Origin: an uncultured virus (IMG/VR IMGVR_UViG_3300008113_000027)
Lineage: Duplodnaviria; Heunggongvirae; Uroviricota; Caudoviricetes
Strand: one strand, 5' to 3'
IMG/VR virus record: IMGVR_UViG_3300008113_000027
Length of the DNA: 23,714 bases
Below are positions 7,218-23,714 of the stretch, piece after piece. Made by a program: the position numbers and the translations under genes. How positions within the stretch are numbered: position 1 is the stretch's first letter; every line of letters starts with the position of its first letter. The notes below the pieces were generated by a model. That model was not told the origin of the DNA. It worked only from the letters and a program-made list of their open reading frames with translations, and did no database searches.

Positions 7218-10200
7218 TTACCTTCTTTTAGTTGTTGCTTTAATAAATGATTGGTCAGTTACACTTGGTAAATTTATATCTGTAAAAGTAGGATTAAAAT
7301 ATGGATTAATTCCAAAAGAATTAAATGTAGTAGGGTTAGTAGTTGTAACTGGAGTTTGTACTTTATTTTTTGCAGCTTCTTCTTTGTTTACTTTTTCTAT
7401 TAATAATTCTTTTTCTCTTTCACTAAGAGTTTTACCATTATGAGTAAAAACTACTTCACCATTTCTCATTGATACACCAATACCATATTTAGAAAACATT
7501 GGTGACATATTCAACAACATTTTATTGTATTGTGCAGTATTTAAATCTCTACCTGTTTTCTGCATTAGTTCAGATTGAGATGCAAGATTTTGTGAAAGAT
7601 TAGTATAGAATTGGTCAATGTCTTGTCTATCAGCCAAATCTCTATTGTACTCACCTTGCATTACCATTTGGTCTTGTTGATTTTCCATTTGTGCTTTTTG
7701 ACCTAACATCTGTGCCATTTGTTGAGCATACATATTGTAAGCTTGATTCTGTGCTTGGTTAGCTCCCATATCAGCAGCAATATCCATTGCTCTTAAAGTA
7801 TTAACACCTCTTGCAGAATTTCTACCTCTTTGTCTTGATGCTTCTTCTCCTAGTTTAATATCTCCTAATTGTTTATCTCTATTAATAGCAGCAAGTGCTT
7901 GAGCTTCTTGCATAGCTCTTAATCCTTCAGCACCATACTCTCTAAAGAAATTTACATTCTTAGGAGTTTCCATTCTATTAAGAAATGTACCCATCATTGG
8001 TCCAACACCACCAAATAGATTACCTGCTAATCCCATTAAGTCACCACGAGTAAAATCTAAATCTTCACCTGATTTAGTTTTATCTGATTTAGTACCTTTA
8101 TCTTTTTTAGGTTTACCATTCTTATCAAATAATCCACTAAAAAAATCACCTGTTTCATCTACTGCTTTATTTAAAAAGTTCATAAACTTATTAGGTTTTT
8201 TTCCTTTTTCTTCAGATAACATTTTATTACCAATCACTTCATTGTATAATGGATTAGGAATCATTCCACCTTTAGTATTAATATATGGGTCTTTTGAAAG
8301 AGCAATATTTCCAAATGTATTTCCCATTACATTATTCATTACATCATAAGGATTAACACCTGGAGAATCATAAGGATTTTCTACCCATTGCCCATTTATT
8401 TTTATAAGGTTATCCATTTCTTCAATTGGAGTTCCTTGTTGCATATATCTTTTTTTATCTTTTTGAAATCCAAAACCACCTAAATTTACTTTTTGAAATA
8501 AATCTGAACTTTCATCTGGTACAGTAATTGTTTTGTTTGGATTATAAGGTGTACTTGTTTTAATAGTAGTTGATACTTTTTCAGGTTCTGTTGTAGGAGT
8601 TTTAGTATTTAAATTTATTTCAGATTCTATTTTAGGAATTATATTTTTAGGTCGCAAAGGTTGGCTAAATAAATACATTTCAGCACTAGGTTCAATATTA
8701 GGATATTCATTAGGGTATTCTCTATCTATCCAATATTTTTGATAATCACTTGACAAATTAGTTTCTAATTCATTAAACGCAGGATGTTTAGAGTCAATAT
8801 TAACCCAATCAGTTCCTTTTCCTGCTGGATTAAAATAACTCCATTGATTATTATCACCTTTTTCATCATAAGTATTTCTATAAATATAAGATGGATATTT
8901 ACCATATCCAGAATACATATCATGATTTAAATTTTTATCACTTGAAGGTGTATATTTATAAGGATGTTGATAATTTTTTTCATTCAACATTTGTGCATAA
9001 TTTGCATCAGTCATTTGAGGATAAGCACCTGTTTGAGGAGCAGTATACTCAGGAATAAATGGATTAACTAATCCATAAGGAGGAGTACCATTATTAAGTT
9101 TACCACCATACATCATCATTCCCATTTGTTGCATCATAGCAGGGTCTTGCATTAACCCAGCCATTGCTTGTTCTTGCATCATAACCTGTTCTGCTTGTTG
9201 AGCCTGAGCTTGTTGTTGATTAGCTTGTTCTTGCATAGCCATATCACTCTGCTCTTCTAATGCAGCAGTTTCTTTTTGTCTTTCCAATGATTGTCTTAAA
9301 AACTTATCATGTGGAGATTTGCCTAATAGCTTTTCAAGTTTAGCAATATTTCTTTCTCTTTTATCTTTTCTGTCAGCCATAGTCTTACCATTTACTTTAA
9401 GTCTATCAGAATATACTTTAGTACCTTCAGGTAATGCAACAGGTATTCCTCCATTTTCATGACTTGGTCCTTCAAATTCTCCCATTTGTCCATTAGGCAT
9501 TTCATACATCTCTTGTCCTTCTACTTCAACAGGAATGTTTTGAGGTACTTGTCCACCTTGTGCATAAGAACCATACATCATTTGTTGCATATACATTGAT
9601 GGGTCAATCATACCACCATAAGCATGTTTCCATCCTGCTGCATTTTTTGCAAAGTTAGCTTTTTTAACCATAGCACTTGAATAATTATCTTTGTTAGCTA
9701 ATACCTTAGATGCAAATTCTTGCACTCCCATTCCTCTTTTTTTAGCAGCTGCTGTAAATGTACCTCTTTTAGAAGGTTTAATATGTATAGTTCCACCAGT
9801 TCCATACTCATCTACCATACCACCATAACCCATCATAAAACCTGTATTAGGTTTTGTAGGTCTTAATTCTGGTTCAGGTTCTCTAATAGCTTTAACCATA
9901 TCAGTTACAGCTTTACTTGTAAGGTTTACTAAAGCATTAGCACCTACATCAAAAAGCATAGGTGCAAGTGTAGCACCAAAACCTAATTTAGGAATTTTGT
10001 TATTTTTCATATTTGGAAAAGCTGCTTCACCTGATGACACTTCATCATCATTAATTAATTTTATTTCTTGCGGTTCTTTATCAGATTTAATATTTATAGG
10101 TTCAGTTTTTTGTTTTTTTCTTGTTCCAAGTTTATAATTAAGGTTAGCACTAATATTAGAATCTGTTGGAGAATACATTCCTGATACTCCAACATCATAA

Positions 10201-12491
10201 ACATCATTAGAATACCCAACATTGCCTGTTAGTCTATTACCATCACTATATTCATAATCTAATCCACCTCTAAAATTATTCTTATTAAAACCTACATTAG
10301 CATTTACATTAGGCATTCCTCCTGCATTAGAATAAGATGCACCTATATTTAAATTAGGAGTATTATATCCTGCTGAAAATCCAAACTCATTTCCTTGAGT
10401 ACCTCTTTTTAAATTACCACTTACATTGAATTTATCATTACTAAATCCTGCATTTAAATCAGTAGTATTTTCTCCTAACCCAATTCTTTTTTCTGCACCA
10501 AAATTAAATCCTTTTTTATTTAAATTTAATGCTCCATACAGTCCTGGCATGTTTGTCATTGGATTAAAATACATTCCTGCATCAAGTCCATTAGTTGATA
10601 ATCCATATTCTAATGGTGACCTTGCTGTAAACATATTTCTATATTCAGGAGATAAAGATAAAAACTGTTGAAGTCTATCTTTATAATTTGGTGGGTCAAC
10701 TGGATTAGGTTTTACTTCTCCACCAACAGCCATTTTCTTTTTAATCTTTCTTTCTTGTTCAAGCATTTCCTTAGTAGGTTTTTTACCTGAACCTTTATTT
10801 GCTCTAATGTTATCCCAAAGTCCTCTTTGAGAATATGAACCATCTGCTCTTTTAATCATACCCCCATTAGCTTTTTGTTCAGGACTCATTTGTTCTCCTG
10901 ACATTTGATTTAATATTGTTCCTGCTGCACCAGTAGCACCAACAACAGGAGCTACTGCCCATAATTCATTAAATAATTTTGCTAATTTTTTTGGGTCTTT
11001 ATCTATTTGATTTAAAAATTCTTCTTTACCACTTATTGGATTAACAAAAATTTTATTTAAATCTTTAATTATACTTGATGCTTTATTTTCATCTATTATG
11101 TCATCTGGTTTAATATTGTAATATTTTCTTAATTCCATAATTCTTGCGTGTACCTCAGTTGGATTAGCTATATAACCTTGATAAGCTTTATCTGGGTCCA
11201 TATTTTCATATGGATTTTTACCTTGTGAACGTAAATCATTCCATTGTTTATAAGAATCAGATGCTTCAGTATTTAATAAATCTATTACTTTTTGTTTTTG
11301 TCCTGAAACTTCTAATGTTTCAGCAGGTACCCAGTCATGTGTTCCTTCATGTATTGCTGTTGAAATTCTCTTTTTTTGACTTAATTTTGGTGACCTTGAA
11401 ATCCAACTACCATATTGTTCAAATGGTCTAATTTGATTATCACTATAATACATTCTTGACTCTGGACTTATTCCATGCATATAACTAGCACCATAATTTC
11501 CTTCATGAATGTTACCTTCAGTATGTTTTCCTAAATATTCATCTACATTTTCTTTTAATTGTTGTTTTAAACTATATTCAGAAGATAATGGTTTAAATGT
11601 ACGAGCTTGGTCTTTTCCAATAAATATTGGTTTTAACATTTCCATTTTTTCAGTAGCAGGTATTGATTGAGCTATAGTTTTATCTATAACTTTATTCATA
11701 TCATTATCTATTTTCTTCTGTGTTGTTGGATGTGTTATCCATTCTTCTAACCATTTATTACCTTCTGCTATAGATTTTCTATTTTTTTTACCTTGTAATA
11801 ATTCACCAATAACTTGTTCTGCTAAATTACTAGAACTTCTTAAACCTCTTATTATACTTAAAGGATTATATCCACTTTTTTTAGTTGATAATTCAGGTAT
11901 TAAGTTAGTTATTTGTTTTGTAAGTTTTGGTGCTTTAGTTAATGTTTTAAAACCTTTTCCTGTTAAAATATCTAATGGTATATCTACACCCATTTGTACT
12001 AAAGGATTATCAGACACTAATGCACCAGGAGTTAGTTGGTCATTACTAGGCAACCATTGTTTATCTTCAGGTCTTAGTTGACTTTCTAAACCCATGTCAG
12101 TCATAACCCTTGCTAAATTAGGTAATGCAGAATAATAATCATTTCTACCTGATAATAATTCACCTGCCATAGCTAATGGTGTATTCATAAGTTCACCTGC
12201 ATAACCTAGCATTGTACCTGTTCCTTGTGCAACACCTTTAGCAAAATCACCAGTACCTTTTCTAACTTTATCTTGAGCTTTACCTACTCTTTGATTTTTA
12301 TAAAGTTCATCCCAAGCATCATTCATACCTCTTGGAACACTTACCCATTCTTCTAATAAATTATCCCAAACTACATCTCCCCCTTCAAACTTATCTTCAT
12401 ACATTTGAGCATAACTAGGAGAATTGACATCATAGATTTTACTGTCAACTTGTATTTGATTTTTTTTGAGTTTTCTTTTTTGTTTACTCAT
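7218..12491 (-). CDS. Multidomain virion cargo protein (1757 aa): zincin metallopeptidase, small basic modules, beta-hairpin-repeat domain, EVEGxE/GPSHExGGI core, C-terminal coiled coil
   Basis: HEGTH at 11337-11351 with downstream NPTEVHAR. Amphipathic beta-repeats at 10125-10613. Core VEVEGQE...GPSHENGGIPVALPEGTKVYSDRLK at ~9394-9530. Lies directly after the muzzle gene, where crAss-like phages place the first cargo protein. Confidence 0.8.
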   Translation of the reverse strand: MSKQKRKLKKNQIQVDSKIYDVNSPSYAQMYEDKFEGGDVVWDNLLEEWVSVPRGMNDAWDELYKNQRVGKAQDKVRKGTGDFAKGVAQGTGTMLGYAGELMNTPLAMAGELLSGRNDYYSALPNLARVMTDMGLESQLRPEDKQWLPSNDQLTPGALVSDNPLVQMGVDIPLDILTGKGFKTLTKAPKLTKQITNLIPELSTKKSGYNPLSIIRGLRSSSNLAEQVIGELLQGKKNRKSIAEGNKWLEEWITHPTTQKKIDNDMNKVIDKTIAQSIPATEKMEMLKPIFIGKDQARTFKPLSSEYSLKQQLKENVDEYLGKHTEGNIHEGNYGASYMHGISPESRMYYSDNQIRPFEQYGSWISRSPKLSQKKRISTAIHEGTHDWVPAETLEVSGQKQKVIDLLNTEASDSYKQWNDLRSQGKNPYENMDPDKAYQGYIANPTEVHARIMELRKYYNIKPDDIIDENKASSIIKDLNKIFVNPISGKEEFLNQIDKDPKKLAKLFNELWAVAPVVGATGAAGTILNQMSGEQMSPEQKANGGMIKRADGSYSQRGLWDNIRANKGSGKKPTKEMLEQERKIKKKMAVGGEVKPNPVDPPNYKDRLQQFLSLSPEYRNMFTARSPLEYGLSTNGLDAGMYFNPMTNMPGLYGALNLNKKGFNFGAEKRIGLGENTTDLNAGFSNDKFNVSGNLKRGTQGNEFGFSAGYNTPNLNIGASYSNAGGMPNVNANVGFNKNNFRGGLDYEYSDGNRLTGNVGYSNDVYDVGVSGMYSPTDSNISANLNYKLGTRKKQKTEPINIKSDKEPQEIKLINDDEVSSGEAAFPNMKNNKIPKLGFGATLAPMLFDVGANALVNLTSKAVTDMVKAIREPEPELRPTKPNTGFMMGYGGMVDEYGTGGTIHIKPSKRGTFTAAAKKRGMGVQEFASKVLANKDNYSSAMVKKANFAKNAAGWKHAYGGMIDPSMYMQQMMYGSYAQGGQVPQNIPVEVEGQEMYEMPNGQMGEFEGPSHENGGIPVALPEGTKVYSDRLKVNGKTMADRKDKRERNIAKLEKLLGKSPHDKFLRQSLERQKETAALEEQSDMAMQEQANQQQAQAQQAEQVMMQEQAMAGLMQDPAMMQQMGMMMYGGKLNNGTPPYGLVNPFIPEYTAPQTGAYPQMTDANYAQMLNEKNYQHPYKYTPSSDKNLNHDMYSGYGKYPSYIYRNTYDEKGDNNQWSYFNPAGKGTDWVNIDSKHPAFNELETNLSSDYQKYWIDREYPNEYPNIEPSAEMYLFSQPLRPKNIIPKIESEINLNTKTPTTEPEKVSTTIKTSTPYNPNKTITVPDESSDLFQKVNLGGFGFQKDKKRYMQQGTPIEEMDNLIKINGQWVENPYDSPGVNPYDVMNNVMGNTFGNIALSKDPYINTKGGMIPNPLYNEVIGNKMLSEEKGKKPNKFMNFLNKAVDETGDFFSGLFDKNGKPKKDKGTKSDKTKSGEDLDFTRGDLMGLAGNLFGGVGPMMGTFLNRMETPKNVNFFREYGAEGLRAMQEAQALAAINRDKQLGDIKLGEEASRQRGRNSARGVNTLRAMDIAADMGANQAQNQAYNMYAQQMAQMLGQKAQMENQQDQMVMQGEYNRDLADRQDIDQFYTNLSQNLASQSELMQKTGRDLNTAQYNKMLLNMSPMFSKYGIGVSMRNGEVVFTHNGKTLSEREKELLIEKVNKEEAAKNKVQTPVTTTNPTTFNSFGINPYFNPTFTDINLPSVTDQSFIKATTKRR
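10125..10613 (-). repeat. Degenerate ~22-aa tandem beta-hairpin repeats (about 13 strands) within the 1757-aa protein
   Basis: Units GLYGALNLNKKGFNFGAEKRIG / TDLNAGFSNDKFNVSGNLKRG / EFGFSAGYNTPNLNIGASYSNA / NVNANVGFNKNNFRGGLDYEYS / RLTGNVGYSNDVYDVGVSGMYS / NISANLNYKL. Confidence 0.8.
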
Positions 12492-15400
12492 TATCTTATA
12501 GAATTTTGCTCTGTTTCTAATGTGAAGTTAGTAGTTAGTTCTACATCCTCAAAGGTAGTAAATCTTAATCTTATAATCAAATATTTATCTCTGAAGGATT
12601 CCTGGTCATACCAATTCTTATTAGTATTTATTACAGAAACATTGATTACTTTATCAATAGGATATGATGAACTTATTGCACTCCATTCTTTAGTAAACAT
12701 TGGAAGTGTATAATCAATTCTTAAATCTCTAAAGTCATTTATAGTCCAATCTCTTTCTGTTCTATTTATAACAATAGATGTAGCATTATTTACAGTTTGA
12801 TTTTCAAAATAATCTTGAGGATTAACTTGAGCATCTTTAGGAATCATTTGAACTTCACCTGATATTTGTCTATGATTATAAACAGTCAAATAATTAAATG
12901 TTACATTCTTTAACTCATAATAATCCTGACTAGTACTATTATATTTTTGAGCAATAGTTTGTAATTGTAAATCTTCCCAAAGTCTAGTATTCAATGGATT
13001 AGATACTGATACTGTTTCAATTATGTGTGAGTAAAGAGTACCATAATATTTTTGATGTAATCCTTGAATATTATGTTTCCACTCTGTTTCTCCATTAGCT
13101 GAATAAAAAGTATTTTGGTCTTGAGAATAGAATAGTGGAAGATAAGAATGGAATGATACCCAAGTTTTAGTTAGCAATGAAAATGAAATTGTAAATGATT
13201 TATTTTCAAAGAATGTAGGGTTATTAAAAGATATATTTGTAAAACTTGTACCTCCATTATATCTTACAAATCTATTAGTATCTGCATTAAAATAAATTTT
13301 ACCAGACACTAAATCTAAATATCCAGCATCAATACTTATAATTTTAAATTCACTTAAATAATCAGGTCTTAATAAATAATCTCTTTTAGTAAAAATAACT
13401 CTTTGATGTCTTGGGTCAAATACTGAATGAATACCTATACCATTAGGGTTATTAGGATTATCAGTATTAGGAAATACTTCACCTGTAAGGTCAAAAAATT
13501 GTTGAGCAAGATATGGTTTAAGATATTCTTGAAACCAATTATACATACCCTCACCACTTATTTTTGCTAATCCTCCTTCTCCACTACTAACAAGATATAA
13601 ACTCTTTTCATATTCAGAAGCATAAAATATACCAAGAGGTGATTTAAGAATACTCCATTTATGATTAGTACCTGCACTACCCATATCTGAATCTACCATT
13701 TTTCTTGGAGGTATTGAAAAATATTCTCCTGTACCTATGTATGTAACTATTTCATTAACAATACTTTGTTGTACATTTTGAGGTAGTAACCATAAGCACT
13801 CTTCAGTAAATACAAATAATGAATTATTCTTTCTTACTAATCCTGTAATACCACCATGCTCTGCTTCTATATCTCTATAATTGTTAGCTAAGAATGTTCT
13901 ATAGTTATCACTTAGTTCTTCTTGAAAACTTGTTTCAGAATAATATACTCTATCAGGAAAAGATTCTAAACAATCTGAACAACATTCATAATTTGATGGT
14001 AATGGAAAATAAACTTTTTGCTTATCCATTCTACTAAAGTCAACATTATAATGATATATCTCTGGACAACACAATCCTTTATATAACCACTTATCTTTAT
14101 CTTCATCATAATATAACCATCTTTCAACAAAGTAATCTATGATTTTAGGATATTGATAATTATAATAAACTCCACAACTATGATTTTCTACTTGTCTTAA
14201 AGCAGTATTAACTTCTGATTCTGTATACACACCTATAAGATGTTCATTTGCAAGTGCTATAAAATTACCAAAAACACCTACAAATAAACTATCTAACTCA
14301 GTATCTTTAACCGTTTTATCTAATTCAGTATCTTTAAAAGAATCTACAAATCCTTTAACTATTAATGCTGATACTCCAATAGAACCTAATGTAATTGCAG
14401 TAATAGCTATAATTGCAGGTAAAGTAGTAGGAATAAGTATACCTGCTGCACCAAGTACTGCTGATACTGCTAATCCTGATGCTCCTCCTGCTGTAAGTGC
14501 AATACCAACTGCTGCTGCAACAATTACTAAACCTAAAACTAATTCACCTATTATACCACTAAACATTTCTCTTAAAAGAGAATTAGAAAGATTATAATGT
14601 GTAATAGATACATCACCTGCATATAATCCAAAATCACTTCCTGTTGAAGGTGCAGTTAACATACAATTATGCATCTTATAATACTTAATTGAATTAAGAT
14701 TACAATGCACATCTCTTTCTACTCTTAAAGTTACATAAGGAATATGTCTATTATTTAAATCATCTCTTTTAGGAAGATTTTGACCTAACTTAATCATTTG
14801 CACTCTGTTAGACCAAGATACATTATATTGCCTATATCCTGTTTCATAGTTATCATCATATGACAAAGCATTTGATGAAAGTATTTTTAACTTTGCAAAA
14901 TTCCTATCACTATTAGTTGTAAATGTTCCTTTGTATACTTGAGTTCTTCTTTCTATAAGTGGGTCAACATCTACAAACATAGACCCTGCTCCATCAAATT
15001 TTTTACTTCCTAAATTTGTTTTATCATAATTAAATTCTCTTTCAAGTTTTAAATATTCAGGAATAAGCAAATTATTTTGATATTGAAATTTAGGATTTAA
15101 TAAATATGAATGTCCATCATCAGCATCATTACCTTTTGTAAAATAAGAAAATGTAAGATATTGAAATTTAGCATCAGTATATCTTGCTCTACCTGCTATA
15201 CCTGCATCAAGTATTTCAGCAGTATAAGTAGTTAATGTATTTGAATAACTAGTTATGGTAAATACATCAATTCCATCAGATGATGGTTGAGTATCTACTG
15301 TAAATGTAAAAACACCATTAGTTAAATCATCTTCATTAATAGTTTGAGTTACAGGAGTTTGAGGAGTTAAAGGAGGAATATTGTATTTATAATCAACAGT

Positions 15401-17122
15401 TAAATATAAAGGTAAACCAGGTGTAGGCCATACAAACCCTTCATTTAAAGTAACAGTCACAGTAAGACTATAAAATGTATTTAATGAGTTATCATTATCT
15501 ACATGAGTTTCTAATCCTCTTGATGGGAATCTATGATGTCTTATAGGTGTATTTACAATTGGATTACCACATATATCTTCTCCCCAATAATCTCCTGATG
15601 CACAAGAATCTATATCTTCATAGTTAGATTGACTACATTCCCAATATGCCATTTGACCTTCTAAATCAGAAGGATTATATTTATATGCAGTTTCATATAC
15701 TCTCCATTTTTCTACTTTGGGAATTAAATCATCATTATATGCAGTTTCTAATGATATTGGAACAATATGTTCTATATCATGATTCCAATCTTCTATAACT
15801 GAATCATCATCTGTAGGTTCACAAGAATTTGTATTCCAATCCCATCTTTGATTTTTAGGTGGTCCAGGAATATGATAAGCAGGGGATTCAAATCCATCAG
15901 CAAATACATATACTATACCCATAGCATATACTTCGCCACCCATAAATCCTATACACTCAAATGGAGATAAAGGATTTTTGGGATTACCTACTTCACTAAT
16001 ATCTTTATCACCTACTTCTTTTACAATATAACGAGAATGTATTTTAGATGCATATTTTTGAAATCCACAAAAGTTTACTTGTTTACCTTTTGTATTAGCA
16101 AGTAATAATTTATTTTCTAATTGTTCTATATGTCTAGCAACTTCAATATCAATTTTACCTGGTTTAATTTCTTCAGCAGAAATTTCTGTATAACCATTTA
16201 ACCCTCCATCATATACAAATGTAGTTTGACTTATGGGTATATTAGGGGATACAACAGTCTTATTTACTATTCCTGTAAATTGACTTGCTTTCATTACTGC
16301 TATTCTATAATAGCTAAAGTTATTATCTAAATTAGAAAGATTAAGTTGAATAGCTTTATTAGTAGGTGCAGGTGACCCAGCTAATCCATCATATTCTAAT
16401 TGAGATGAACCATCAATAAATTGATATGCAGAGTATATACTATCATGATAAATATTAATAGGTCTTGAAGTTACAATCCAATTAGTAGGATTACCATCCT
16501 CATTAAGTAATTGAATAGAGAAGTTATATGAGCCTGCTTCTAATTGACCACCATTAATTATTTCAGCTTCAGAAAAACATGGTATTTTAAAATCTTGAAT
16601 CAAATTAAATTTAACACAATTCCATTTCTCACCTGTAAATGGTGGAAGAGGTATAGGAGATTCAAGATAAGTTATATAAGCATCACTATAGTAATCTTCT
16701 AATTTAGCAAAATTAATTTGTCTTACAGAATTAAGATTGTCAGTAAAGTACACTACTGTTTCACAGCCTCTCCTTAATCTATATGTTGCATCTATTTGAT
16801 ATTCAATACTAAATCCTAAACATTCAGAATTTACTACAGAAGTATATTCACAATTTTTTACTGTACCTATTTCACTATTAGTTCCATTAGTACTAAAGAT
16901 AACTATCTCATTATCTTTAGTATAAACTTTACCTATTCTATAATATCCATTAGGAAGAGTGTAACATTCCTCATTTCCTTTTTCATTAGATAGCATTGTT
17001 CTGTTACCTTCATTGGTTTCATTAACAGCATTCAATGCATATCTATAAGATTCTTTAGGTTGGTCAACAGGATTAACATCCTGCATCATACCTTTATTTG
17101 GTCTGTTTACATTTTTATCCAT
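12491..17122 (-). CDS. Tail stabilisation / muzzle protein (P22 gp10-like crAss family), 1543 aa
   Basis: N-terminal KGMMQDVNPVDQPKESYRYALN, VYFTDNLNSVRQIN, IRHHRFP, RVYYSE...DNYRTFLANNY and C-terminal SFTISFS...WVSFHSYLP match my recollection of crAss-like stabiliser proteins. Directly follows the tail tubular gene. Confidence 0.82.
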   Translation of the reverse strand: MDKNVNRPNKGMMQDVNPVDQPKESYRYALNAVNETNEGNRTMLSNEKGNEECYTLPNGYYRIGKVYTKDNEIVIFSTNGTNSEIGTVKNCEYTSVVNSECLGFSIEYQIDATYRLRRGCETVVYFTDNLNSVRQINFAKLEDYYSDAYITYLESPIPLPPFTGEKWNCVKFNLIQDFKIPCFSEAEIINGGQLEAGSYNFSIQLLNEDGNPTNWIVTSRPINIYHDSIYSAYQFIDGSSQLEYDGLAGSPAPTNKAIQLNLSNLDNNFSYYRIAVMKASQFTGIVNKTVVSPNIPISQTTFVYDGGLNGYTEISAEEIKPGKIDIEVARHIEQLENKLLLANTKGKQVNFCGFQKYASKIHSRYIVKEVGDKDISEVGNPKNPLSPFECIGFMGGEVYAMGIVYVFADGFESPAYHIPGPPKNQRWDWNTNSCEPTDDDSVIEDWNHDIEHIVPISLETAYNDDLIPKVEKWRVYETAYKYNPSDLEGQMAYWECSQSNYEDIDSCASGDYWGEDICGNPIVNTPIRHHRFPSRGLETHVDNDNSLNTFYSLTVTVTLNEGFVWPTPGLPLYLTVDYKYNIPPLTPQTPVTQTINEDDLTNGVFTFTVDTQPSSDGIDVFTITSYSNTLTTYTAEILDAGIAGRARYTDAKFQYLTFSYFTKGNDADDGHSYLLNPKFQYQNNLLIPEYLKLEREFNYDKTNLGSKKFDGAGSMFVDVDPLIERRTQVYKGTFTTNSDRNFAKLKILSSNALSYDDNYETGYRQYNVSWSNRVQMIKLGQNLPKRDDLNNRHIPYVTLRVERDVHCNLNSIKYYKMHNCMLTAPSTGSDFGLYAGDVSITHYNLSNSLLREMFSGIIGELVLGLVIVAAAVGIALTAGGASGLAVSAVLGAAGILIPTTLPAIIAITAITLGSIGVSALIVKGFVDSFKDTELDKTVKDTELDSLFVGVFGNFIALANEHLIGVYTESEVNTALRQVENHSCGVYYNYQYPKIIDYFVERWLYYDEDKDKWLYKGLCCPEIYHYNVDFSRMDKQKVYFPLPSNYECCSDCLESFPDRVYYSETSFQEELSDNYRTFLANNYRDIEAEHGGITGLVRKNNSLFVFTEECLWLLPQNVQQSIVNEIVTYIGTGEYFSIPPRKMVDSDMGSAGTNHKWSILKSPLGIFYASEYEKSLYLVSSGEGGLAKISGEGMYNWFQEYLKPYLAQQFFDLTGEVFPNTDNPNNPNGIGIHSVFDPRHQRVIFTKRDYLLRPDYLSEFKIISIDAGYLDLVSGKIYFNADTNRFVRYNGGTSFTNISFNNPTFFENKSFTISFSLLTKTWVSFHSYLPLFYSQDQNTFYSANGETEWKHNIQGLHQKYYGTLYSHIIETVSVSNPLNTRLWEDLQLQTIAQKYNSTSQDYYELKNVTFNYLTVYNHRQISGEVQMIPKDAQVNPQDYFENQTVNNATSIVINRTERDWTINDFRDLRIDYTLPMFTKEWSAISSSYPIDKVINVSVINTNKNWYDQESFRDKYLIIRLRFTTFEDVELTTNFTLETEQNSIR
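14291..14337 (-). repeat. 20-bp direct repeat (1 mismatch, 27-bp period) encoding KDTELDKTVKDTELD
   Basis: atctaactcagtatctttaa (14291-14310) and atctaattcagtatctttaa (14318-14337). Confidence 0.85.
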
Positions 17123-20135: not shown

Positions 20136-20444
20136 TTAATTATTCTTTTCTAATCTTTCAACTAAATTAAGAAGTTTTTTCATTAATGCAGTATTATTTT
20201 CTATAACATGATTATTAGAATTAACTGTTTCTAATAATGTAGTTCTATCTTCTGCAACATATTTTAATAACTGGTCTTCTATTTCTTTAAGTCTAGTTTC
20301 ATTTTTCTTATGAAGTGCAAAAAATTGTTTTCCCATAAAATAAATAATTGCAATCATAATTATAGCAAAAATACCAAGAACACCATAATTAACTAAATTT
20401 GATATAGCATTAGTTTCTGAAATTTGTAAGAATAAATGTTTCAT
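20136..20444 (-). CDS. Holin-like membrane protein (single TM plus coiled coil), 102 aa
   Basis: TM segment YGVLGIFAIIMIAIIYFMG followed by a charged coiled coil (BhlA/UviB-like layout); two genes from the lysin. Confidence 0.65.
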   Translation of the reverse strand: MKHLFLQISETNAISNLVNYGVLGIFAIIMIAIIYFMGKQFFALHKKNETRLKEIEDQLLKYVAEDRTTLLETVNSNNHVIENNTALMKKLLNLVERLEKNN

Positions 20445-22344: not shown

Positions 22345-22938
22345 TTATGAAAGTGTTGTTCCTGTTACGGTGAAAGTACGGCAGGGGATGTATTGTAATA
22401 CTGATAATTGAGATGTAGAAATAAATAAATTACTTGTACCTGAACTTAAATGAAATGATTGATTTGTGACAGCTGGATTTGTTGTAGATGTCCATAAATC
22501 AAAACCAGCAGCTGTTGTAAATGGAGTATAATTTAATTTCCCAGAACCTCCAAAAATTTGAATACTAAATAATTCTTGTACATTAGGCAATCTCCAACCA
22601 CTTGTAAATGGCGCAATACTAACAATTAAAGCGCCATCAATTGCGCTTGCCCAATTGCTTGAACTTCTTGTCCTTCTCCATCCTAAAACCGTACTACCGT
22701 CATATGTTGACCAATCAATCACAATATTTTTTGTGTATGTTTGACCACCTAACTCATCGGTAAAACGATTTGTGTTGCCAAAAACATTGTTTTCAGCAAG
22801 AAGAAAAAAACTAACATTTCTACCACGTTCCAAATCACCATCATCACCTGTACGATAACTTGTAGTTTGTCCAGTTTTCATTAACTGCGCTGTGCTTCTG
22901 CTACTACTTGGTGGCACTGCTTTTATATATGTATCCAT
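22345..22938 (-). CDS. DUF1566 (Lcl C-terminal, C-type-lectin fold) protein, 197 aa
   Basis: KTGQTTSY...DDG, RFTD, VID...LGW, WASA, GWRLPNVQELFSI, WTST and terminal CR are the DUF1566 signature. Confidence 0.85.
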   Translation of the reverse strand: MDTYIKAVPPSSSRSTAQLMKTGQTTSYRTGDDGDLERGRNVSFFLLAENNVFGNTNRFTDELGGQTYTKNIVIDWSTYDGSTVLGWRRTRSSSNWASAIDGALIVSIAPFTSGWRLPNVQELFSIQIFGGSGKLNYTPFTTAAGFDLWTSTTNPAVTNQSFHLSSGTSNLFISTSQLSVLQYIPCRTFTVTGTTLS

Positions 22939-22940
22939 AG

Positions 22941-23714
22941 TTATGCTTTAGTAATGTTTAAGTTAATAACTGCTGCTGTGCTTACTGTAACTGTTATCTT
23001 ACTACCTTTTATAATAGTATTAGTTAAAGTATAAGCTGCACCATCATCAAGTATTGTAGTAGTAGGACTATTTAATACAGTTGTTACAGTATTTATTTTT
23101 AAATCATAAGGAGCATAAAAATCAACAGTAAGTGTATCAATCAACTCTATTGTATAAACTATACCACTATTAACCCAAAGGCTACCATCATATTCTAAAC
23201 TATCTCCTTTTTGTAAGTTTGTTATTTTTACATCATGAAGTTCATCAATCTCATATCCATTCTGTACTCTTACATACATTCTACCAGAACTACCATTACT
23301 TGCAGTTGTAACTACACCAAGATAAACTAAATGATTTGGAGCAGATGGTTTTACCTTAGTAATACTTCCATCAGTTGCACCTAAATATACAGGGTCACCA
23401 TCAGACCAAGTTGCAGTTGGAAGAATACTCAATCCATCCAACAAACCTTGCATCATTATAATGCCTTTTTGATTTGCTGCAATAGATGTAGACATTACTA
23501 TGCCAACAGTTTGTGCTGAAGTTGCATCACTTGAATTATTTGCCCTTTTAACAGTCATTCTGTCACCTGTACCACCAAAAGCATAAACAGGCATCCCTTT
23601 AGTTAATGTAACACTATCGGCATTTGTAACATAAGAAAATAAACTATTTGATGTAGTACCTATACATTGAAATCCGTTAGTAGTAGAATTATAAACGCAT
23701 AGCATTTCAGAGCC
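22941..23714 (-). CDS. Tail-fibre-like structural protein, C-terminal part (5' truncated by the window)
   Basis: The frame stays open to the edge (GGC TCT GAA ATG...), so the track's Met at 23705 is probably internal. Contains a TLTKGMPVY...GDPVYL beta domain and an IDELHDVKIT...GDSLEYDGSLWVN fibre repeat. Confidence 0.7.
   Translation of the reverse strand, partial: GSEMLCVYNSTTNGFQCIGTTSNSLFSYVTNADSVTLTKGMPVYAFGGTGDRMTVKRANNSSDATSAQTVGIVMSTSIAANQKGIIMMQGLLDGLSILPTATWSDGDPVYLGATDGSITKVKPSAPNHLVYLGVVTTASNGSSGRMYVRVQNGYEIDELHDVKITNLQKGDSLEYDGSLWVNSGIVYTIELIDTLTVDFYAPYDLKINTVTTVLNSPTTTILDDGAAYTLTNTIIKGSKITVTVSTAAVINLNITKA

Follow-up and report, generated by a model that had tools for sequence, protein, structure and literature searches.

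It is an open question how crassviruses get across the envelope of Bacteroidota: the podovirus outer-membrane channels described so far are helical, and the structures of crassvirus ejected cargo are given as unsolved in PMC13434306. A preliminary description of the window (the whole stretch of 23,714 nucleotides analyzed here, from an uncultured Caudoviricetes virus) had placed an outer-membrane-type beta sheet inside a virion cargo protein, at 10125 to 10613 on the minus strand, and these positions correspond to residues 627 to 789 of a 1757-aa ORF (7218 to 12491, minus strand). The domain is real and unannotated, and it lies in a crassvirus-like phage protein that is probably injected into the bacterial host.

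The 1757-aa cargo protein and its operon

On its minus strand the window encodes a structural operon of the crassvirus type: ring proteins and a muzzle gene (12491 to 17122, minus strand; PF25731, E value 2e-39) come first, and three ORFs follow, with lengths of 1757, 815, and at least 1586 aa. The first of these, a modular cargo protein, starts directly after the muzzle gene, in the position of crassvirus C1 (gp45). By pairwise BLASTP, its residues 899 to 1142 (9066 to 9797, minus strand) aligned with residues 373 to 571 of crAss001 gp45 at 27% identity over 246 columns (pairwise E value, 2e-5); residues 425 to 552 of gp45 form its portal-bound domain, as described in PMC10172136. Two profile comparisons of the ORF with gp45 (0.5% and 2.5%) did not recover this weak alignment, so the C1 identity rests on gene order and the weak alignment, the same two observations that agree with the virion cargo context proposed earlier. 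A PDB sequence search for likeness to C1/gp45 returned no match. The conserved C-terminal core of the ORF (phrog_15413; 7386 to 8048, minus strand) is 42% identical to gp30 of the Flavobacterium phages Fpv3/FpV4 (37 to 42% over these phages, with 29 records matched), in which the gene with this core likewise comes after a large virion gene. Among 60 loci sharing the C1 core, a muzzle match was present in 51, and fusion to the portal-binding core and a site between the muzzle and cargo genes were found in every lineage with context.

crAss001 gp45 resembles the window protein in lying right after the muzzle gene, in its weakly aligned portal-binding region, and in xGG-type motifs recognized by eye. 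At 842 aa, gp45 has half the length of the window protein, which is assembled from exchangeable cassettes; gp45 has a predicted transmembrane helix, and tblastn found no counterpart of the beta module in it. PMC10172136 estimates some 12 copies of C1 in each virion, has it leave first and in a partly unfolded state in its infection model, and proposes that it helps to form a trans-envelope channel.

Several other features of the window were recorded. Between 19361 and 23705 (minus strand) lie a PD-(D/E)XK exonuclease (phrog_298) and other ORFs, among them a weakly lipoprotein-like ORF of 102 aa that is a separate gene (20136 to 20444, minus strand), an Lcl_C protein (22345 to 22938, minus strand), and a cement-like protein (22941 to 23705, minus strand). 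Within the 1757-aa ORF, residues ~230 to 510 (window ~10960 to 11800, minus strand) form an exchangeable cassette that contains an HExxH motif and looks zincin-like by eye; in P0008, P0014, L018, and L019, comparable slots are filled by other HExxH cassettes. A mini-cassette of about 45 residues (residues ~541 to 590; window 10755 to 10870, minus strand) recurs nearly unchanged at varied positions in relatives, residues 541 to 601 being shared with residues 621 to 682 of P0009.

The beta-meander and its length variants

Residues 621 to 788 (10128 to 10631, minus strand) form a 14-strand amphipathic beta-meander, modeled as an open arc. It is preceded by a cassette leader with a short helix (residues 592 to 620; 10632 to 10718, minus strand), which falls in a segment (536 to 630) shared with L018, L019, and L023 and has similar counterparts before the strands of P0010, P0014, and the long forms described below. 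A charged cassette tail follows (residues 789 to 835; 9987 to 10127, minus strand), with similar tails, by eye, in P0010, P0011, P0014, and the long forms. In the AlphaFold2 model of the domain (12 sequences; pLDDT 84.5, pTM 0.67), DSSP assigned 13 strands within residues 627 to 789, the number expected from the preliminary description, plus a short first strand at residues 621 to 625 (10617 to 10631, minus strand); the expected strand length of 9 to 11 residues gives way to 5 to 6 residues for the first two strands and 8 to 12 for the other twelve.

The alternation of hydrophobic and small or polar residues was confirmed, with a score of 1.23 against 0.75 ± 0.10 for shuffled sequences (z = 4.7; none of 2,000 shuffles reached 1.23), and the best 163-aa stretch elsewhere among five large ORFs scored only 1.17. 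The hydrophobic face (65 residues) consists of 74% FILVMWYA, including 29% F/W/Y, and the polar face (64 residues) of 69% G/S/N/T; glycine occupies 15 of the 64 polar-face positions versus 5 of the 65 hydrophobic-face positions, and glycines on the polar face are as found in barrel lumens. Turns are tight, as had been noted, with 2 to 4 residues on one side of the sheet and 2 to 6 on the opposite side (means of 2.0 and 4.3 by the strand counter). The periodicity of about 22 residues did not hold: alternate strands start at residues 636, 662, 688, 714, 740, and 765, the autocorrelation is strongest at lag 26 (z = 4.1, compared with 1.7 for lag 21), and the hairpin period is thus about 26 residues. 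The strand height of 18 to 26 Å fits the outer membrane. With dN/dS values of 0.19 to 0.28 against three relatives, the domain is under purifying selection.

The ORF has no signal peptide, the best 19-residue hydropathy within its first 45 residues being -0.43, in line with the earlier observation; the best 19-residue hydropathy values of the ORF are 1.32 (residues 510 to 528) and 1.26 (residues 837 to 855). The domain had no match in Pfam or PHROGs at an E value of 0.1, and its four matches among PDB sequences (E values, 0.04 to 0.84) were judged to be due to chance.

In seven near relatives the domain is kept at 89 to 97% identity and the neighboring segments swap; the record nearest to the window, a 19-kb fragment, also carries it. 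Distant forms at about 40% identity occur within the long proteins P0010, P0011, and P0014, and a 27% form (L016 and L017) lies in an extra gene upstream of a C1-like gene. Across lineages 27 to 41% identical, 13 to 14 strands are retained, with 13 in P0011 and, by DSSP, in L017. The orthologous C1 proteins of L018, L019 (identical to L020), and L023 contain, between the same flanks, a meander of about 390 residues, in which 26 to 28 strands were counted from the sequence (alternation z = 7.7 to 8.3); by eye, the loops on one of its sides are long. Judged by profile comparison (93.9%; E value, 1.5e-7), this long form is homologous to the short form. We rejected the idea that a linker connects two halves in the long form, as the 20-residue loop sits inside a hairpin. 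A third lineage (L055, L058, L064, and L065) has about 12 strands; its match to the window form is weak (10.9%; E value, 0.003), leaving kinship unproven, and a profile comparison with the long form gave no match. The strand counter agreed with DSSP for the window (14 strands) and overcounted L017 (15 versus 13) and L055 (14 versus 12 by eye).

In the survey of the 60 IMG/VR loci with the C1 core, several of which are incomplete at their ends, the module was found inside C1 in 8 (five distinct proteins, two short and three long), and in 4 a small gene located upstream of C1 encodes the ~12-strand form; 12 loci thus carry some form, and the other 48 show none. The domain is an optional, mobile cassette of C1. 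By tblastn, the beta module matched none of 50,697 GenBank phage records, crAss001 included, and the Fpv3 group of cultured phages showed no such domain. None of 13 candidate stand-alone proteins of 89 to 286 aa from a word index, none of 17 candidates from IMG/VR searched with the L017 form, and none of 27 stretches retrieved from GTDB genomes with a single pattern, a weak test, proved to be a further copy. The long forms had no Pfam match. ORFs of L062, L067, L068, L069, L073, and L079 passed the thresholds of a composition screen and were rejected by eye, and a 27-residue match in P0013, a 3848-aa repeat protein, was dropped as spurious. A 174-aa ORF (L015:407-931) containing the first ~10 strands of the module lies on the strand opposite unrelated genes and is possibly a broken copy or a chimeric assembly.

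Curvature of the modeled sheet and candidate functions

Foldseek ranked OmpU, KdgM, and VDAC first for the window model, with TM-scores reaching 0.44 in one search and at most 0.47 overall, and in a VIA search of 48,161 chains all 50 of the 50 matches listed were outer-membrane or mitochondrial/plastid barrels, which supports the outer-membrane-type sheet of the preliminary description. The top VIA match listed (Z = 12.5) superposed with an rmsd of 6.9 Å over 176 residues. The fit depended on barrel size: the rmsd was 12.0 to 12.6 Å on OmpG, CymA, FadL, and Omp33 and 4.4 to 4.8 Å over ~180 residues on the 26-strand LptD/MtrB. A second model, of the 27% identical relative L017 (13 strands by DSSP; pLDDT 71.0), again had membrane barrels as all 50 of the 50 VIA matches listed (top Z = 13.3) and superposed on LptD at 3.1 Å over 179 residues. 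With nominal strand numbers for the targets, the rmsd fell from 12.2 Å at 14 strands to 4.6 Å at 26 for the window model and from 13.3 to 3.4 Å for the L017 model (Spearman coefficients of -0.74, with 41 of the 50 listed rows used, and -0.90, with 39 of 50). Because the rmsd falls steadily to 26 strands, both models appear to be open arcs equivalent to about half of a large barrel or flatter, and as the trend is still falling at 26 strands, the sheet may be flatter still. By this indirect reading, the modeled monomer has an open curvature. Both models were built from 10 to 12 sequences, half of them near-identical, and shallow alignments can leave true barrels unclosed in models.

The self-contained barrel expected from the preliminary description was not upheld by these fits, nor by the spread of ~12, 13 to 14, and 26 to 28 strands among relatives. 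If each chain closed on itself, it would make a monomeric 14-strand barrel of ~26 to 29 Å (C-alpha), with 12- and 26- to 28-strand barrels in relatives, and would act as a small porin or as the membrane anchor of ejected cargo. The even count of strands, both termini being on the short-turn side, the short turns on one side and longer loops on the other, the retention of 13 to 14 strands in diverged lineages, the first ranks of OmpU, KdgM, and VDAC, and a match of 1 of the 12 module members to OMP_b-brl (PF13505; E value, 6e-4) are as such a barrel would have them. Nonetheless we regard it as unlikely, as barrels of 12 to 14 strands are the worst fit of both models (rmsd, 12 to 13 Å), the Foldseek TM-scores are low, and strands one and two have just 5 to 6 residues.

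A sheet that does not span the membrane at all, either soluble or surface bound, could also be open; it might form a lipid groove, bind LPS, or act like a carpet, as proposed for some antimicrobial proteins. The open model, the roughly twofold variation in strand number, and the repeat-like hairpins would suit it, as would the proximity of attacin and gloverin clusters in Atlas language-model features (0.82 to 0.89, under the lead line of 0.9). The facing of the sheet argues against it. Mean identities in the structural alignments were 9.7% and 10.2%, whereas about 9% would be expected with the hydrophobic face on the convex side and about 5% with it on the concave side, given assumed face frequencies; this rough estimate favors a convex hydrophobic face in the models, so that a fold with its hydrophobic face buried inward was not seen. 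The glycine-rich polar face and the membrane-matching strand length also speak for a membrane sheet, and lipid-groove chains of the AsmA/VPS13 type were absent among the matches listed in either VIA search (best 50 each), which counts as absence only. We consider a nonspanning sheet improbable. The best BFVD match was A0A6J5KVK6 (168 aa; E value, 4.5e-5; TM-score, 0.39 to 0.43); this protein and unnamed viral clusters in the Atlas (109 to 189 aa; 0.88 to 0.89) may be stand-alone phage beta-sheet proteins.

An open sheet could instead act as a decoy for BAM, its last strand pairing with BamA, stalling OMP assembly, and reducing receptor supply or envelope defense. An open-sheet EspP intermediate on BAM was among the lowest-rmsd Foldseek rows (6.7 Å). 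The ~12-strand form begins directly after one boundary motif ([FYM]xxGG, discussed below) and its terminal F also serves as the opening residue of the following one; the L017 form ends in like manner, so that L017, L055, L058, L064, and L065 would have a terminal aromatic beta-signal if cut there. In the window, the last strand partly resembles the BAM-type beta-signal that had been proposed for it, and it ends in L, is internal, and is followed by a tail of ~46 residues before the next motif-like site, which makes the signal weak and nonterminal; P0011 lacks an aromatic residue at its strand end, and the long forms end in P. A decoy would have no need for 28 strands, and the ~12 copies of C1 per virion are few against the cell's BAM pool. 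We hold this role to be rather improbable.

We tentatively prefer a reading that we judge plausible, if somewhat short of probable: a virion-delivered sheet that, lacking a signal peptide, inserts in the outer membrane and closes by pairing into a wide pore. Together with the self-closing monomer it gives membrane barrels about two thirds of the weight. The C1-type cargo polyprotein would enter the virion by means of its portal-binding core and, at infection, be driven out via the tail in an unfolded state, which would bring the cassette to the host envelope independently of a signal peptide. There the 14 strands would lay their hydrophobic, aromatic face on outer-membrane lipid, and edge-to-edge pairing would close the sheet, most simply as two copies in a 28-strand ring of ~50 Å C-alpha diameter, the size that sister phages would encode in one chain of 26 to 28 strands. 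The resulting pore might ease the later passage of cargo or DNA, or permeabilize the envelope, in hosts where this is helpful. Sister payloads are likewise of envelope-acting kinds, namely PG_binding_1 in L017 (E value, 3e-11) and a YkuD-like domain in P0011 (E value 0.002, below the cutoff), and were counted in favor of this reading. Against it, 12 strands (third lineage) or 13 (P0011 and L017) are not neat halves of 26 to 28, variable length is also seen in open repeat sheets, and the barrel would have to insert from a tail tip without chaperones. The patchy spread makes the cassette an accessory entry aid or permeabilizing payload rather than the required channel of the family, and an obligate DNA conduit is unlikely, because no such domain was seen in 48 of the 60 C1 loci or in the Fpv3 group of cultured phages.

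Known systems resemble the domain in part. LptD, MtrB, porins, KdgM, and VDAC/Tom40 share its amphipathic next-neighbor strands, aromatic outer face, glycine-rich inner face, and short turns on one side (Z = 9 to 13). Unlike bacterial barrels, the domain has no signal peptide, terminal beta-signal, or family match above the cutoff; it is embedded in a phage protein, and its monomer model is open. Phage genomes do encode beta-barrel folds, such as Phage_OMP (PF24653), porin-like BFVD entries, and the outer-membrane protein Lom of lambda. Phage-encoded OMPs are stand-alone genes whose products leave the cell interior through the host's export pathway, whereas the window domain is fused into virion cargo. 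According to PMC13434306, T7 gp14, DEV gp73, and N4 gp52 are likewise stored in the virion and expelled to open the outer membrane; DEV gp73 and gp72 consist of alpha-helices throughout, and N4 gp51/gp52 are predicted to be helical. These podovirus channels are helical parts of an ejection operon, in contrast to the all-beta, optional window module. Insect attacins, as described in the text of PMC10690985, are glycine-rich amphipathic open sheets predicted to form a barrel by oligomerizing; they are secreted by animals, have five strands per chain, and damage the outer membrane from outside. None of the 12 module members matched the attacin/gloverin families PF03769, PF03768, and PF10793, and an attacin-type oligomerizing sheet or half of LptD serves as a working analogy, the domain being a member of neither.

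In the papers searched, from a collection with few subscription journals, neither the domain and its motif nor a virion-delivered use of a porin-like sheet was found. The ~12-, 14-, and 26- to 28-strand sizes in one gene slot offer a natural test of virion-based barrel delivery that dispenses with Sec and a terminal beta-signal, and of evolution from half barrel to full barrel; if the preferred reading is true, nanopore applications would be a further reason for interest in a 28-strand pore made by a monomer of 170 residues.

Cassette boundaries and possible release of the payload

The flanks named in the preliminary description, KMAVGG (residues 586 to 591) and KLGFGA (residues 835 to 840), are present and lie 30 and 46 residues from the strands. 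The upstream [FYM]xxGG motif (residues 587 to 591; 10719 to 10733, minus strand) adjoins the start, at residue 584, of a segment shared with P0009, and the downstream site (residues 836 to 840; 9972 to 9986, minus strand) is a degenerate, motif-like boundary near which shared segments end or start (829 to 833). Segments shared among orthologues often start or end at motifs (543, 584, 833, 894, 896, 949 to 957, 964, and 1133). In 14 C1-type proteins, which are related so that counts are nonindependent, [FYM]xxGG occurred 81 times versus 19.9 ± 4.0 in shuffled sequences; in 11 neighboring structural proteins it occurred 5 times, with 5.6 in shuffles. crAss001 gp45 (L026:13988-16513) has xGG-type motifs, by eye, at about 209, 263, 332, 373, 427, 562, and 828, and its segments resolved by cryo-EM, 214 to 245 and 425 to 552, begin at or just past motifs; the strict motif in gp45 alone is not significant (3 observed, 1.26 expected; 123 of 1,000 shuffles). 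The motifs lie at the ends of the cassette and, as a lead only, could be sites of cleavage; they could alternatively be a packaging or recombination signal. DNA repeats were looked for at the cassette ends, and none were found.

JAB proteases cut after GG. In a 92% complete relative carrying the module (G002), a four-gene cassette (L089:11915-15637, minus strand) consists of a 215-aa ORF that looks ubiquitin-like by eye and has a GG within it, some 77 residues in, a 407-aa ORF, a JAB-like gene (PF14464; E value, 0.008), and a ThiF gene (E value, 4e-16). ThiF and JAB homologues are also encoded by crAss001 and Fpv3. The link between JAB and the motif is imperfect, because four records, two of them more than 90% complete, fail one or both searches: neither ThiF nor JAB was found in G003 and G005, no ThiF in G004, and no JAB in G006. 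A wider proposal joins these leads, with C1 as a GG-motif polyprotein whose menu of envelope-acting payloads would be cut apart by a phage protease, for which the JAB enzyme from the ubiquitin-like gene cassette is the candidate, and with a self-inserting half-barrel that would dimerize in the host outer membrane to a 26- to 28-strand pore wide enough for dsDNA; this all-beta entry channel would be made of two halves in some phages and of one chain in others. We consider it doubtful as a whole. From the motif-bounded C1 design, visible in crAss001 gp45 too, follows a prediction for proteomics that applies directly to a phage in culture.

Cleavage could also serve a late function, in which the cassette would be released within the cell during infection and would target the outer membrane when the host lyses, rather than from the virion. 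Motif-bounded cassettes would be releasable in the cytoplasm, where the JAB-type and ThiF-type genes of the close relative would fit. The fusion to a portal-binding core and the muzzle/cargo gene location in every lineage with context point the other way, as does the existence of a separate, weakly lipoprotein-like gene in the window, and we regard late action as highly improbable.

Two further observations concern related loci. In L054 to L069, the interval from muzzle to C1 contains small variable genes with the same GG motifs, as if the cassettes of the polyprotein had been split into separate ORFs. The virion region of G002 also encodes a 5990-aa protein (L088:42-18011) whose latter half carries NADAR, AAA_30, and UvrD_C_2 domains.
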